64,000 nucleotides of DNA, from the NCBI GenBank assembly GCA_024639505.1, contig JAHEIE010000018.1:2777-66776 (forward strand). The letters run 5' to 3'. The DNA comes from Crocinitomicaceae bacterium. Lineage in GTDB: Bacteria; Bacteroidota; Bacteroidia; Flavobacteriales_D; CAJJDF01. The notes beneath the pieces were generated by a model, which was given only the letters and a program-made list of their open reading frames with translations, searched no databases and was not told the DNA's origin. Positions 23,359-28,788 of the stretch are shown piece after piece. A program made the position numbers and the translations under genes. Numbering within the stretch: position 1 is the stretch's first letter; every line of letters starts with the position of its first letter.

Positions 23359-23853
23359 TTATAAATTCAGACTATATAAGTAACCTAATTTAAAACCAAT
23401 AGCCCTAGATTTTAAGATGTCTGTAGTGTTTGTATAGCTTTGAAAGCCATCGTTTAGGTAATGCTTATTGAATAATCCATGATAGTAATCAAATGAAAAG
23501 AACAAAGAATGTGTTGTATTTAGTTCATATCTAGCAGAAATTCCTGATAATAGCTCAATGTTAAATGTATTTGTATACTCAAAAGGACTTTTTTGGTCAA
23601 CAATTAATTGGGTGTTTTCTCTGTTTATGGTATAGGTAGAATCTTGGTGATTTAATTCTCCTTTTTCTGTTGCTTCAATATGATATACTTCATAACCATT
23701 AGCTATCAGGCTCAATGAAACACCTACTTTTGGAAGTAAGGTTAGTTTTTCTTTGAATGTGTAGAGTGAATATTGAACGGAAAGATTAGTTCTTATAAAA
23801 TCAACGTAATAGAATTCATTTAAAGTGGAGTTTAGGACTGTGTTTGTTTTCAT
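23359..23853 (-). CDS. 164-aa beta-strand-rich protein without signal peptide (barrel-like, possibly the C-terminal part of a split or frameshifted barrel)
   Basis: Its ATG overlaps the upstream stop (ATGA, 23850-23853). Alternating hydrophobic pattern, ends GFKLGYLYSLNL. Confidence 0.5.
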   Translation of the reverse strand: MKTNTVLNSTLNEFYYVDFIRTNLSVQYSLYTFKEKLTLLPKVGVSLSLIANGYEVYHIEATEKGELNHQDSTYTINRENTQLIVDQKSPFEYTNTFNIELLSGISARYELNTTHSLFFSFDYYHGLFNKHYLNDGFQSYTNTTDILKSRAIGFKLGYLYSLNL

Positions 23854-24572
23854 AATTTTAAATTATGAAAATTAAAAATTATTGATACATTCACTCCATA
23901 AAAGTTACTTCTGAAAGAATGAGGGTTCACCATAGAATATTCCTTCAGTGATTCAAAAGGTACTTCACTATTTGTATTTAGATTACCAAATCCTGTTAAA
24001 TAATTAAGGGTGAGCTGTATATCAAATTTTTTATTTAGCTTAACTCCACCACCAATAGCTCCTTCAGAAAAAAACTCTTCTAATCTCAATTTATTATTAT
24101 TTCTATCTATTGTGTTTTTTGAAACAAATGAATTATTAATGATGTCATATTCATTTAAGTCATAAGTTCCTTTAATAAATGTCCCCACACCTACTCCAAT
24201 TTTAATAAGCCCATAAAACCTATCTGGATTTCCAAGTTTTCTAGAAAATGAGGCGGAGAATCTGAGATAATTTAGTTTTGATTTAACTCTATAGTCTGAA
24301 CCATCACTCATTCTTTGTACCCAAAATAAATCGTTATTTGAAAGTATACTGGGTTTTAGGATTATACTATTTTTACTTGTCCAATGATGCTCAAATGGGA
24401 CTGAGAAATAAGCTGTATTTCCATTTATAGGAAAGAATTTTTCTGGACTACCAGAACCATAGAGCCTATTATTATTTTTGTAGAGACCAGCCTCAATACC
24501 AATACTATTATTACTCTGGGCAAAACCAAAAAAACCAAAAAAAAGGAATATTATGTTGATTGATATTTTCAT
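23850..24572 (-). CDS. 240-aa small outer-membrane beta-barrel-like protein
   Basis: Signal peptide MKISINIIFLFFGFFGFAQS. Beta-strand periodicity. C-terminal YGVNVSIIFNF... resembles an OMP beta-signal. Confidence 0.6.
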   Translation of the reverse strand: MKISINIIFLFFGFFGFAQSNNSIGIEAGLYKNNNRLYGSGSPEKFFPINGNTAYFSVPFEHHWTSKNSIILKPSILSNNDLFWVQRMSDGSDYRVKSKLNYLRFSASFSRKLGNPDRFYGLIKIGVGVGTFIKGTYDLNEYDIINNSFVSKNTIDRNNNKLRLEEFFSEGAIGGGVKLNKKFDIQLTLNYLTGFGNLNTNSEVPFESLKEYSMVNPHSFRSNFYGVNVSIIFNFHNLKL

Positions 24573-24574
24573 AT

Positions 24575-25816
24575 TTATTTTTCTTTAATGCATATAATAT
24601 TATTCCCAGCAGTACAATAAATATAACCATTAATAGGGTCGATATCCATATATTGATAAGAACCTCCCACGCCTTCAGCAAGTAATTCACGAGTGAGTAT
24701 TTGTTTTACAATCTCTCCATTCCCATCTAATTTATACAGCCCAGCTGTAGAGGTTAGGTAAATATGGTTGTTGTATTTTTTCATATTTGGAGACCAATTA
24801 TCAAACCCCATCGTGTTATTATAATTTTTATGTAAAGATCCATCACTTGTATTGATGATGTTGAGGTTGTAGTTATTACCTAGCGATTGCAATAACTTTC
24901 CATTAAGTATAAGCATTATTCCTTTTCCAGTTCTTTTAGAAGCAGAAACTTGAGTTCGCCAATTAATTGTTTTGTTTTGAAGGTTTAAAGATGACGAGCC
25001 AATAAAGCCTCCGTGTATAAAAACTATATTACTTTCAATTATTGGAGAGGACCCAATTGCACCATAGTTAAAATAACTTCCTAAATCCCAATACATGCTG
25101 TCGTTTGTGATGTCAATAGCAAAATATTCTCCTCTTTCAGTTGTAATACTAGGTTTATAGCCGATACTTTGCGTAAATATTATCTCATTTCCATTAGGAT
25201 GCTGATAGTACACCATTCCTTTTGGAGCTTGATTAAAACCATTTCTACCACTTCCATACAATGTGAATTTTTCAATAGAGCTACCGTTTACAGGATTTAT
25301 CGTGTATAATTTTGTGCTATCTCCCACTATTCCTCCTCCCAAATCGAAAAAAGCATATATTTTGTTATTTGCATAAATAAAATCGTTTAGTGTTTTGTTG
25401 CTGTTTCCATTTATAGACCATAAAATATTTCCACTAGTCACATCAATGCATCTCAAATCACCCTGTCCATCGAAATACAATTTATTGCCTATTAATAGTT
25501 GCTTTCTGTTACTCCCTTGATTATACTTAGCCCATAAAGTATCACCGGTAACTTTATCTAATGCTATAATAGTTTCGCTGTTTCCGAACCCTGCAGGATC
25601 AAGAAAGTAAATAACGTTAGAGGGAGTTACCACTGTAGAGTAACAAGTAAAACCCGTTGAACTTCTTTTATTCCATACTAGCTCAAAGTCTTCATTGAAG
25701 TCAGTTTTAGTAGAACCCGAAGTACAATCGGGTTCTAGTGTAGGCTCTTTTTTGCAACTCATCCCGAATTGCAAAAAGAGTAAAATAGCAAATACAATGT
25801 AAACCAATATTCTCAT
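24575..25816 (-). CDS. Beta-propeller (PQQ-like/BamB-like repeat) lipoprotein, paralogue 2
   Basis: Lipobox LLFLQFGMSC. Repeated xTGDxLW / TSGNILW motifs. Ends CIKEK. Paralogous to 25817..27052. Confidence 0.6.
   Translation of the reverse strand: MRILVYIVFAILLFLQFGMSCKKEPTLEPDCTSGSTKTDFNEDFELVWNKRSSTGFTCYSTVVTPSNVIYFLDPAGFGNSETIIALDKVTGDTLWAKYNQGSNRKQLLIGNKLYFDGQGDLRCIDVTSGNILWSINGNSNKTLNDFIYANNKIYAFFDLGGGIVGDSTKLYTINPVNGSSIEKFTLYGSGRNGFNQAPKGMVYYQHPNGNEIIFTQSIGYKPSITTERGEYFAIDITNDSMYWDLGSYFNYGAIGSSPIIESNIVFIHGGFIGSSSLNLQNKTINWRTQVSASKRTGKGIMLILNGKLLQSLGNNYNLNIINTSDGSLHKNYNNTMGFDNWSPNMKKYNNHIYLTSTAGLYKLDGNGEIVKQILTRELLAEGVGGSYQYMDIDPINGYIYCTAGNNIICIKEK
25742..25786. repeat. 45-nt segment shared with 26960..27004 (copy in paralogue 2)
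   Basis: Hand alignment gives 44/45 identical. It contains a 12-bp stem (25745-57 with 25769-80) around the lipobox codons. Confidence 0.85.
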
Positions 25817-27052
25817 TTATTTTTCTTTGATGCAAACAAAGCTGTAACCTCTTGTAGTGTATATATAGCCATTTGAAGGATCCACATCCATTCCACTTTG
25901 AGGACCTCCAGCAGTTTCACCAACATACTCAGAGAAATGTAAGTTTTGAATCATATTGCCGGTAGATGTTTCTACTATTCCCAATACATCAGTGGTAGTA
26001 AAATATACTTTATTATTGAAAAATCGTAATGGACTACCTCTGAAATTAGTCCCTATTCCTGAATAGGTTTTAAGTTGGTTGCCATTTAATAAATTCAACA
26101 CGTTAAAGTGGCCAAAGTTACCTACTTCTTTAAATAATTTACCATCTGCTATCACAGCATATTTTCCTCCAGTTTGGCTTGCTGTTGGTTCAGACACTTT
26201 CCAATTAGTTGACTTTGTTACTAGGTTAAGAGAAGCTACTCCTGCAAAACCACCACTAATATAAATGTTGTTTCCTTCCAATAAAGGAGTAAACCCTCTT
26301 GCAGAAGTATTAAAGTAGTTACCCAAGTCCCAGTACATACTATCTCCAGTAATATCAATTACAAAATAATCGCACCTTCCAACGCTTACATTCACACCAG
26401 TACTTTGGGCAAAAATAATTTCATTTCCATTTGGATGCTTCCAATAGGCTATTCCTCTGGGAGATTGACTGTATCCTGCTCTATCAGAGGTATAGACGGA
26501 ATAAAGGTGCATTGCAGAGCCACTAAGTGGATTTATCTTATACAAAGCAGTACTATCTGCTGAGTTGCCTTGATCAAAAAAAGCATAAATACTTCCATCG
26601 GCATACACATAATCAGATAAATATGCAGGGCTAAATCTCCAAACTTCATTTCCTGTTGAAGGATCGATGCACACTAATCTCTCATCAATATCTGAATAAA
26701 TATAATTACCTATTAATCTATGATTATTTGTGCCTCCAGTGGCATCTCTGTGCCATAAGGTATCTCCAGTAGATTTATTAAAAGCCACCATATAATCATT
26801 GTGTCCCGCTCCTTTCCATGTCCAGTAAATCACCTCATTGGGTGTTACAATTGTAGCTCTGCAACTGAAAACTTCATTCACCTTTACATCCCATATTAAG
26901 TCAAAGTTTTTATTCACTTTTACTGATGGATTTTCAGAGTTCTCGCAAGGCGCTATAGAAGGCTCTTTTTTGCAACTCATCCCGAGTTGCAAAAAGAGTA
27001 AAATGCTCATTAATATACTTGTCATTTGTATCATATTTTTATTTATTACCAT
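25817..27052 (-). CDS. Beta-propeller (PQQ-like/BamB-like repeat) lipoprotein, paralogue 1
   Basis: Lipobox LLFLQLGMSC. STGDTLW / STGNEVW repeats. Ends CIKEK. The ATG at 27052 overlaps the upstream gene by 7 nt; alternative ATGs lie at 27034 and 27025. Confidence 0.6.
   Translation of the reverse strand: MVINKNMIQMTSILMSILLFLQLGMSCKKEPSIAPCENSENPSVKVNKNFDLIWDVKVNEVFSCRATIVTPNEVIYWTWKGAGHNDYMVAFNKSTGDTLWHRDATGGTNNHRLIGNYIYSDIDERLVCIDPSTGNEVWRFSPAYLSDYVYADGSIYAFFDQGNSADSTALYKINPLSGSAMHLYSVYTSDRAGYSQSPRGIAYWKHPNGNEIIFAQSTGVNVSVGRCDYFVIDITGDSMYWDLGNYFNTSARGFTPLLEGNNIYISGGFAGVASLNLVTKSTNWKVSEPTASQTGGKYAVIADGKLFKEVGNFGHFNVLNLLNGNQLKTYSGIGTNFRGSPLRFFNNKVYFTTTDVLGIVETSTGNMIQNLHFSEYVGETAGGPQSGMDVDPSNGYIYTTRGYSFVCIKEK
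26960..27004. repeat. 45-nt segment shared with 25742..25786 (copy in paralogue 1)
   Basis: The single difference is A/G in the loop (Phe/Leu codon). The surrounding genes are far more diverged. Confidence 0.85.
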
Positions 27053-28788
27053 TTATGTAATCTAAAGAATTCAGGCATCGTAACATCATCGCCATTATAG
27101 ATTTTTCTGAGTGCATCGTCTGTTTCAATACAATTTCGCATTTGTAGATGATTTACTTTTCCTCGAGACATTCCACCCCCTGGCAATGGAACAGGTCCCA
27201 TGAAATTTTTATAATCATCAATACAACCTGGAAAAGCTTTTGCTGATGAAGCCAATACTGTTGCATCACTAGGGGTTTCTATTAGAGTTTTCTTAGTAGT
27301 AACTTCTAATTCATATGTAACATCATACTGTGTATAGATTGTTGATGTATAGGTTTGTGTCCAGCTTGTATCGTTGGGGCAATTCCCTGTTGAATTGAAT
27401 GTGCTTACTCTAGGTACGGTTGTAGTAAGATTACCATTATTATGAAAGGTAACGGTTTGTTTTTTTATGCAACGATAGCTTACAGTATCAATGAGGTATA
27501 AATTACTATCATTAACTGCTCCAATTATTGCTTTGTACTTTAGATTTACCTTATTTAGCTCCTGGTGTAATGCCATAAAGTCTCTTGAAATTAATTTTGT
27601 AACTCCATAGCGCGCCATATCACTATTCGATTTACCTATTCCCCTCCAAAAAGCGTAGAATCTTTTTGCTCTAGATAAATGCCAGTCTGCATGTCCTTTG
27701 TAAACATAGGACCATGCTTTTGCGTCTATTCGCATTTTTTCCATCGCATTTGCCAATTTGCTATCCTCATTTGCACCGAAAGTAGAAAAAGTATTAGGGC
27801 CGTTTACTAAGTAATAAGCCATTCTCCATAAAATAGGGTCTTCCTCCTGTCCCCAAAAAAGCGCTTTAGCAAGTTTTGGGTTAATGTATTGGTTTAACGT
27901 ATCGGTTAGATAAGTTGAGGTAGGGGTAAATTGTTTACCAATAGGATCTGTTTGGTCTTTAGTAAATTGGGTTAAAATTTTAGCTGCTAGAGAGTCGGCA
28001 AAATAATTGCCAATTTTACTTGGAGCTGTACTTAAAGCTCCTGTTCCAATAAAAGTTTGTGCTACCCATGGTAATCCTGTAATTAATTTATCTATTACAG
28101 TATCTAAACTTACTGCTAAAATTTTCCCTGCTAAATCTCCTCCTAAATGAGCTAATTCTTGCTGATTTCCAACGATTTCTGCACCTGCATGAGGGGACCC
28201 GAATGTAACGAGACCATAAAAATGTCTCTCTCCAGCTCTTATCAGAGGATCATAAAGATTACTAGAGTCATGTTTCATGTCCATATCTCTTGCTATTAAC
28301 CCACCCAAACTATGTGCTATTGCATAAGGTCTTGATACAGTATCAAAACCAGATGGGTAACCAAGTTTATATGAGCTAAGCTTAACTCCCATTTCTGTAT
28401 ATGCTTCGAAAGTAGCATTTGAAAAACTACTTTGATTTCCATAATAATCCAATTTGTAGGGTGCATATCTAAACTCTCGCACATGAGCATTATATGTTCT
28501 ATTCCAAGAAGTTTCATTACCACCTAATCCATGAATAAAATAAATTGGTCTAATAGAGTCTTTAAATCCTGCACGGTTTGTGCCTGAAGAAAAATACAAA
28601 GCTGTATCATCCCTCAATCCATTAGTCCAATCATGAACAACAGAGTCGAGTTTTGGTTTTATTATGGTTGATACTGATTGTGATTCAAATGGCTTATTAA
28701 GTTCTTTTACTTCGGGGTCTATTTGTGAAAGTCCCGAACTGGTTACTGCTATTAGCAGCGCAATTAATATGAGTTTTATAGTTTTCAT
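27046..28788 (-). CDS. Secreted alpha/beta-hydrolase with lipase-type nucleophile elbow and ~250-aa C-terminal region of unknown fold
   Basis: Signal peptide. IYFIHGLGGNETSW (oxyanion HG-like), AIAHSLGGLIA (A-H-S-L-G pentapeptide), FGSPHAGAE. Confidence 0.65.
   Translation of the reverse strand: MKTIKLILIALLIAVTSSGLSQIDPEVKELNKPFESQSVSTIIKPKLDSVVHDWTNGLRDDTALYFSSGTNRAGFKDSIRPIYFIHGLGGNETSWNRTYNAHVREFRYAPYKLDYYGNQSSFSNATFEAYTEMGVKLSSYKLGYPSGFDTVSRPYAIAHSLGGLIARDMDMKHDSSNLYDPLIRAGERHFYGLVTFGSPHAGAEIVGNQQELAHLGGDLAGKILAVSLDTVIDKLITGLPWVAQTFIGTGALSTAPSKIGNYFADSLAAKILTQFTKDQTDPIGKQFTPTSTYLTDTLNQYINPKLAKALFWGQEEDPILWRMAYYLVNGPNTFSTFGANEDSKLANAMEKMRIDAKAWSYVYKGHADWHLSRAKRFYAFWRGIGKSNSDMARYGVTKLISRDFMALHQELNKVNLKYKAIIGAVNDSNLYLIDTVSYRCIKKQTVTFHNNGNLTTTVPRVSTFNSTGNCPNDTSWTQTYTSTIYTQYDVTYELEVTTKKTLIETPSDATVLASSAKAFPGCIDDYKNFMGPVPLPGGGMSRGKVNHLQMRNCIETDDALRKIYNGDDVTMPEFFRLHKW

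Follow-up and report, generated by a model that had tools for sequence, protein, structure and literature searches.

A conserved coding palindrome at the lipobox of tandem beta-propeller lipoprotein genes in Flavobacteriales

The 64,000-nucleotide (nt) stretch at positions 2,777 to 66,776 of contig JAHEIE010000018.1 (hereafter the window) belongs to the Crocinitomicaceae bacterium assembly GCA_024639505.1, a Flavobacteriales metagenome-assembled genome (MAG) of 2.16 Mb with 35% G+C, designated G000 here. On its minus strand it carries two head-to-tail genes for beta-propeller lipoproteins, gene A and gene B, both of which contain a nearly identical 45-nt segment that covers the lipobox and folds into a hairpin. 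We interpret this 45-mer as the local representative of an ancient coding palindrome tied to one type of signal-peptide module. Its identity in A and B would then be mostly retention of an old element and not a fresh conversion tract, because the core 36 nt are also conserved outside this organism and across both subfamilies. The feature is real, exceeds chance by a wide margin and is more widely spread than the first-pass annotation, made from the letters of the window, could see. The elements concerned are the following:

25817..27052, minus strand: gene A, a 411-amino acid (aa) PQQ_2-type beta-propeller lipoprotein from the list of open reading frames (ORFs; Pfam PQQ_2, E = 1.6e-13)
26974-26972, minus strand: lipobox Cys codon of gene A
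26960..27004, minus strand: gene A copy of the 45-mer, encoding ILLFLQLGMSCKKEP
26998-26984 (5' arm, CTCTTTTTGCAACTC), 26983-26979 (loop, GGGAT) and 26978-26963 (3' arm, GAGTTGCAAAAAAGAG, with one bulged A), minus strand: hairpin of gene A
24575..25816, minus strand: gene B, a 413-aa paralogue of A, 43% identical to it (Pfam PQQ_2 beta-propeller)
25756-25754, minus strand: lipobox Cys codon of gene B
25742..25786, minus strand: gene B copy of the 45-mer, encoding ILLFLQFGMSCKKEP
25780-25766 (5' arm, CTCTTTTTGCAATTC, in which a T gives a U-G wobble), 25765-25761 (loop) and 25760-25745 (3' arm), minus strand: hairpin of gene B

As recognized at first sight, A and B are diverged tandem paralogues: their proteins share 43% and their DNA 53% identity, and the start of gene B directly abuts the stop codon of gene A. 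The two 45-mers, by contrast with this divergence, agree at 44 of 45 positions, where shuffled sequences let no match be expected by chance. They are the only copies in the genome, a search of all 2.16 Mb having returned no further one even at 8 mismatches. Similar identity is not found elsewhere in the pair, in line with the first-pass annotation: the runner-up 45-nt window in the codon alignment reaches only 35/45, and the edges of the identity island are sharp, with the flanks falling off at once to the diverged level. Inside the 45-mer all 13 degenerate codons for the same amino acid are identical, compared with 73 of 151 (48%) elsewhere in A and B (P ~ 8e-5), and outside the island the synonymous sites of the two genes are saturated. 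Several codons of the stem are rare in the genome, namely CTC (5% usage), GGG (10%), AGT (18%), GAG (23%) and TGC (31%).

The hairpin proved to be stronger than claimed. Its stem consists of 15 bp (12 bp had been proposed) with one bulged A and a 5-nt loop, GGGAU, and is formed by pairing of CTCTTTTTGCAA[C/T]TC with GAGTTGCAAAAA(A)GAG. The sole substitution between the two copies (C/T), previously assigned to the loop, sits in the stem as a C-G pair in A and a U-G wobble in B, such that pairing is kept. Folded in isolation as RNA, the 45-mer yields -18.5 kcal/mol for A and -16.2 kcal/mol for B (z = -5.1 and -4.1 relative to dinucleotide shuffles). At the DNA level, arms of 15 bp flank a 5-nt spacer as a near-perfect inverted repeat, and the 45-mer folds with -13.7 kcal/mol in A (on either strand) and -10.2 kcal/mol in B. 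Under a null model that keeps the peptide and redraws the codons from genome usage (synonymous resampling), A and B rank first and second among the 122 lipoprotein candidates of G000. The 5' arm codes for the end of the hydrophobic core (L-F-L-Q-L), the 5-nt spacer for lipobox positions -3 and -2, and the 3' arm for the lipobox Ser-Cys together with Lys-Lys-Glu.

Lipobox regions of this genome show some excess of structure in general. The 122 lipobox windows (-33..+21 around the Cys codon) have a mean z of -0.43 relative to synonymous recodings, with 11.5% at z < -2, versus a mean of -0.16 and 2.5% in control windows 300 nt downstream; about 10% of the lipobox windows are still outliers when A and B are left out. 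This excess may be a general effect of T-rich core codons and A-rich Lys/Glu codons, a codon bias at 5' ends, or a wider tendency of lipoboxes to form palindromes.

Among 5.8 billion proteins, the family to which A and B belong comprises about 30 clusters, all of them from Flavobacteriales MAGs or marine metagenomes, and some of its genes stand alone while others form tandem arrays of two to four. We collected 30 distinct N-terminal DNA segments, all relatives being metagenome contigs (loci on these contigs are numbered L0xx; G011 is a sister MAG). As these sequences are related and recombining, the statistics given for them overstate their independence. The palindrome CTCTTTTTGCAACTC-N5-GAGTTGCAAAAAAGAG, or a close variant of it, is present in 17 of the 30 N-termini, both A-like (G011 and four L027 copies) and B-like (L015, L018, L024, L026, L029, L030, L038 and L039). 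Its core arms are the same or nearly so in L024, L026, L027, L029, L038 and G011, where the flanking DNA is 66-86% identical, and in some bearers the flanks are just 66-73% identical to the window. Relative to synonymous resampling, 17 of the 29 N-termini tested have z < -2, most hairpin-bearing members lying at z = -3.3 to -5.6. A significant hairpin is missing from 12 of the 30 N-termini, including those of the nearest orthologues of B, L020 (86%), L042 (82%), L028/L019 (77%) and L016 (75%), the orthologues of B altogether being 73-86% identical to it. Outside the gene family, the pattern was not detected in 15 genomes of the taxonomic family. A dispersed repeat or operator was rejected on account of this confinement and of the mere two copies in the genome.

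In one member, L040, the arm encoding Lys-Lys-Glu is lost, and a different G+C-rich inverted repeat of 10 bp (GCTCACCCTC/GGGGGTGAGC; z = -4.0) occupies the same place. Here (positions ~200-260 of L040) the residues C-R-K-D follow at the lipobox, and the perfect inverted repeat GCTCACCCTC-CAACT-GGGGGTGAGC ends just before the Cys codon. The loop-plus-arm sequence usual elsewhere in the family is present in this repeat in both orientations.

The bulged A sets the register of the inner stem such that third codon positions pair with each other, and it is exactly these pairs that covary through compensatory changes. TTG/TGC (G-C) changes to TTA/TGT (A-U), with TTG/TGT (G-U) and TTA/TGC (A-C) as intermediates, and CAA/AGT changes to CAG/AGC. 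Among the 24 sequences first collected, five pairs with 13 cells are changed on both sides; none of 500 shuffles reaches the observed covariation score and every slid register scores lower, figures that are inflated by the relatedness of the 24 sequences. Synonymous conservation follows the stem as well. In hairpin-bearing modules the fraction of same codons is 0.79 in the stem versus 0.50 in the flanking codons, whereas in hairpin-less modules it is 0.63 at the stem site and 0.61 in the flanks. Scanned along whole genes in windows of 12 codons, synonymous conservation peaks at the hairpin (0.80, the mean being 0.53), and another window reaches 0.76.

The arms are nearly invariant and the loop is variable, as in the L026 tandem pair with identical arms and the loops GGTAT and GGAAC (3 of 5 positions differ). 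The loops fall into two classes that are mutual reverse complements. An exact flip of the spacer is seen between GGAGT in L027 gene 1 and ACTCC in L027 genes 2 and 3, and flips with one mismatch between GGGAT in G000 and ACCCC in the G011 orthologue of A as well as between GGTAT in L026 and CTACC in L029. The flipped spacer alters lipobox positions -3/-2 from Gly-Met/Val to Thr/Ala/Leu-Pro.

Gene conversion, one of the two explanations offered at the outset, is active in this family. From about nt 130 onwards, the two tandem genes of L028 are 100% identical. For L027, the identity of genes 1 and 2 covers the 3' 60%, and what genes 2 and 3 have in common is just the segment between start codon and hairpin (60-90 nt); altogether, the 100%-identical blocks of the tandem copies in L027 and L028 extend over hundreds to ~1100 nt. 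The long identical blocks (L028 482-2947, where they measure ~1.1 kb, and L027 1592-6450) are accompanied by differing N-termini, which is the opposite of the pattern in A and B. At the end of one G011 contig lies a repeat of at least 100 nt, which is present again in a chimeric gene whose front is B-like and whose back is A-like. The G011 locus is split into L010 (C235, 1-1021) and L011 (C213, 3001-3742), which have at least 100 identical bases in common; the chimera lies on C235 and may be a true recombinant or the result of an assembly that broke at a conversion tract. Gene B of G000 and L020 are 91% identical over 3.7 kb, with high identity from about the Cys codon on and signal peptides of different types upstream of it. 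The single-gene locus L024 (178-1416) is another mosaic, whose gene starts with a signal peptide of the A type (MTSILYS...), has a first third that is diverged and continues into back two-thirds with 86% DNA identity to gene B and its downstream genes. Copy number varies from 1 to 4 among relatives.

For A and B themselves, a possible trace of conversion is the ATT-TTA that both carry at the 5' border of the 45-mer in place of the ACT-TTG of the other hairpin-bearing modules. This amounts to two sites, each state of which is found singly in other members, and we take it as modest evidence for local conversion between A and B on top of the family-wide conservation. With the core conserved across organisms, conversion is insufficient as the sole explanation of the 45-mer.

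What we observe directly is the palindrome with its family-wide conservation and covariation, the spacers in flipped orientation and the mosaic blocks of identity; from this we infer maintenance by template switching and conversion rather than by selection on an mRNA hairpin. In its full form our proposal, to which we would give an even chance, is that three coupled influences preserve the coding palindrome, namely constraint on both of its arms, correction by template switching and conversion between paralogues, and that it also serves as a crossover joint. Both arms would be under protein constraint, and through pairing the synonymous sites of each arm would depend on constrained sites across the stem; the rare codons CTC, AGT, TGC and GAG would persist for this reason. 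During replication, template switching within the palindrome would copy one arm from the other, which would repair or double single changes and sometimes flip the spacer. Gene conversion and crossing-over between tandem copies would use the island as their only stretch of homology, and the extra identity of A and B, the swapping of signal-peptide modules and the changes in copy number could be their products. Template switching has been documented to homogenise the arms and invert the spacers of coding inverted repeats, and paired arm changes, spacer inversion and de novo inverted repeats are the footprints of such switches in replication (Abraham & Hazkani-Covo 2021, PMC8604942; Monttinen & Loytynoja 2022, PMC8794818).

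Several points weigh against this proposal. Template switching is deduced from its footprints, and selection on RNA structure would equally give covariation, synonymous conservation limited to the stem and a separate hairpin at the site, as in L040. Relatedness and recombination among the sequences inflate the covariation statistics, the evidence for conversion in G000 consists of the two shared sites, and assembly errors are possible in the 100%-identical tandem blocks of L027 and L028.

Selection on an RNA structure was the other explanation put forward initially and is the main rival to our proposal; like conversion, it has some support but is not sufficient by itself. The hairpin would then be a selected mRNA element in a long, translationally coupled operon transcript devoid of Shine-Dalgarno sequences and would set translation or stability of the paralogues, e.g. 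as a decay barrier, as a processing site or as a ribosome-positioning element 27-36 nt past the start codon. We regard this as possible but rather doubtful. It would agree with a fold far more stable than synonymous recodings, with covariation at synonymous third positions, with synonymous conservation that is confined to the stem and absent from the hairpin-less modules, with arms that are kept while loops vary, with the different hairpin at the same position in L040, and with the tolerance of the stem for G-U pairs. Since the hairpin is missing in 12 of 30 N-termini, among them the closest orthologues of B (L020, L042, L028 and L016), it is, however, dispensable. Nor do the stem mismatches favour G-U: in the 16 hairpin-bearing sequences we counted 8 G-U and 6 A-C cells, near-equal numbers that carry no sense-strand signal in the direction of RNA. 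Furthermore, every covariation signal of the kind seen here can be mimicked by template switching (PMC8794818).

Control of translation by the structure, also suggested in the first-pass annotation, found no support in silico. The computed accessibility of the start site (-20..+13) is 0.69, 0.49 and 0.52 for wild-type sequences, which is inside the spread of 150 synonymous variants. Start-site insulation, in which the 3' arm would engage the U-rich core and so leave the A-rich start region open, was the mechanism modelled in this way and is not supported. Evidence of a part in lipoprotein targeting or RNA processing was not found either. The hairpin has no match in Rfam at E <= 1, which speaks against a known RNA family. 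It is not an intrinsic terminator either, as it was not reported by a terminator scan and no T run follows the stem on either strand. For a promoter, sigma-70-like matches are at chance level and no Bacteroidota TAnnTTTG was seen by eye in the 45-mer.

More broadly, the palindrome could be, instead of a mutational relic, a selected cis-element of either of two kinds, an expression-tuning mRNA hairpin or a recombinase-free flip switch between Gly-Met/Val and Thr-Pro at -3/-2 that would alter processing or sorting of the lipoprotein; judged by the sequences at hand, we consider this unlikely. A functional mRNA hairpin, if true, would be a rare control element within a coding region in a phylum in which initiation is not led by Shine-Dalgarno sequences.

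A plain, recent and short conversion tract between A and B, with a hairpin arising incidentally where T-rich hydrophobic codons meet A-rich Lys/Glu codons, appears improbable to us. Conversion is frequent in the family, A and B share the ATT-TTA combination not seen elsewhere, and the genome-wide lipobox structure excess is of the kind such an incidental hairpin would draw on. But the core 36 nt are equally conserved in other organisms with flanks of 66-73% identity, A and B are extreme outliers even relative to a null model that keeps the amino acids, and the stem is built from rare codons ending in G or C. The L026 pair, with its identical arms and different loops, is unlike the outcome of a single tract, and at 53% identity A and B offer no flanking homology to start an island-creating conversion de novo.

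It is very improbable that a site-specific recombinase acts on the palindrome to switch cassettes or flip spacers in a programmed manner, in analogy to the variable-lipoprotein loci of Mycoplasma. With two inverted arms of 15 bp and a short, asymmetric spacer between them, the layout does resemble a recombinase core site, both spacer orientations occur, and the module junctions are located at the lipobox. Yet the contig of the window encodes no tyrosine or serine recombinase (PF00589, PF00239); the three tyrosine recombinases of the genome are all located elsewhere, and the genome contains no resolvase/invertase. The two sites, the only copies in the genome, are directly oriented in full-length genes on the same strand, each with its own start codon, and there are no silent cassettes. 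Spacers of tyrosine recombinase sites typically have 6-8 nt, more than the 5 nt seen here, and contigs recovered in duplicate from separate samples do not differ (L024/L025, L030/L031, L016/L017 and L032/L033). Just as implausible is chance combined with ordinary constraint on a signal peptide in preferred codons. The peptide LFLQL...SCKKE is indeed conserved in the family and K = AAA and F = TTT are preferred codons, but neither the 13 of 13 identical codons against a background of 48%, nor the rare stem codons, nor z-scores of -4 to -5 under synonymous resampling would be expected from it.

The two genes are part of a tightly packed operon, with genes for a 344-aa protein and a DUF676 hydrolase upstream and for proteins of 240, 164 and 504 aa downstream. 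Further features of this region are:

27046..28788, minus strand: upstream operon gene for a 580-aa DUF676 / alpha-beta hydrolase, syntenic with the first propeller gene in relatives
23359..24572, minus strand: downstream operon genes for 240 aa and 164 aa, without family match, which follow the propeller gene(s) in relatives too
25815..25834, minus strand: 3' end of gene A, CIKEK-stop into the start codon of B, TGCATCAAAGAAAAATAAAT(G)
24573..24592, minus strand: 3' end of gene B, CIKEK-stop up to the start of the next gene (240 aa), TGCATTAAAGAAAAATAAAT(ATG)

Several metagenome contigs share the gene order found between 21820 and 29865, in which the 344-aa gene, the DUF676 hydrolase and the propeller lipoprotein(s) are followed by the genes for 240, 164 and 504 aa and then by a convergent OmpR-type regulator and a TonB-dependent receptor. 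The operon proteins of 240, 164, 344 and 504 aa have no Pfam or NCBIfam family. Among the domain matches of the A and B proteins, the general Pfam PQQ_2 alone passes; an identity as BamB was rejected, with scores of 19.8 and 29 bits against NCBIfam equivalog cut-offs of 285 and 423.

The start of gene A is ambiguous, as three ATG codons (27052, 27034 and 27025) are candidates. The true start is likely the ATG at 27025 (MTSIL...) or 27034, since homologues start with MK(P/T)MTSIL; the corresponding N-terminus of gene A in G000 reads MIQMTSIL. The longest ORF of gene A overlaps the stop codon of the hydrolase gene and supplies the sole Lys of the n-region (27025-27052).

At their 3' ends, A and B agree in TGCAT[C/T]AAAGAAAAATAAAT (25815-25834 and 24573-24592), a match that had been put forward as a second signal at the DNA level. 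The CIKEK-stop C-terminus is a peptide found throughout the family and is written in codons preferred by the genome. Four of the five degenerate codons are the same, which is not significant at a background of 48% (P ~ 0.16). Conservation of the 3' ends as a separate signal is therefore ruled out, being explained by the conserved peptide and codon bias.

Taken together, the element is best filed as an example of known processes, namely template switching at an inverted repeat and gene conversion in a tandem family of surface lipoproteins. It provides a natural example of a long-lived palindrome in a bacterial coding sequence, whose arms code for the end of the signal-peptide core and for the lipobox with Lys-Lys-Glu, and all footprints expected of template switching are present, i.e. 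paired synonymous changes, residue-swapping spacer flips and a new inverted repeat. For the discovery of RNA structures it calls for caution, as covariation and stem-specific synonymous conservation can occur in coding DNA without a demonstrated function of the RNA. The palindrome also marks a small and rapidly reshuffled family of beta-propeller surface lipoproteins in marine Flavobacteriales, in which modules and bodies recombine at the lipobox.

The closest likeness is to the systems described for template-switch or quasipalindrome mutagenesis (Abraham & Hazkani-Covo 2021, PMC8604942; Monttinen & Loytynoja 2022, PMC8794818), which also feature a near-perfect inverted repeat with a short spacer inside a gene, and relatives that differ by paired changes in the arms and by reverse-complemented spacers swapping residues (here GM/GV versus TP). 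Unlike in those systems, the repeat lies on a bacterial lipobox, is kept across a paralogous family and has both arms in frame and under protein constraint, and the events are deduced from metagenome sequences instead of a resolved strain phylogeny. Concerted evolution with gene conversion among tandem paralogues of surface proteins is a general phenomenon in bacteria. The arrays of one to four copies, the mosaic blocks of 100% identity, the islands as crossover points and the varying copy number conform to it; what sets G000 apart is an island of just 45 nt on a palindrome that is also conserved between organisms, for which conversion alone does not suffice.

The variable lipoprotein loci of Mycoplasma (Vpma of M. 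agalactiae, vsa of M. pulmonis) have conserved 5' recombination sites. They are similar in that each clustered lipoprotein gene has a short conserved 5' sequence at which N-terminal modules and bodies recombine, and they differ from the beta-propeller lipoproteins of marine Flavobacteriales, for which there is no adjacent recombinase, no silent cassette and no inverted gene orientation. Finally, small hairpin-associated inversions are found in the non-coding DNA of plastids. There, as here, a loop of a few bases sits on a perfect stem and both orientations occur among relatives, but in the lipoprotein genes the flipped loop is coding and alters two residues of the lipobox.

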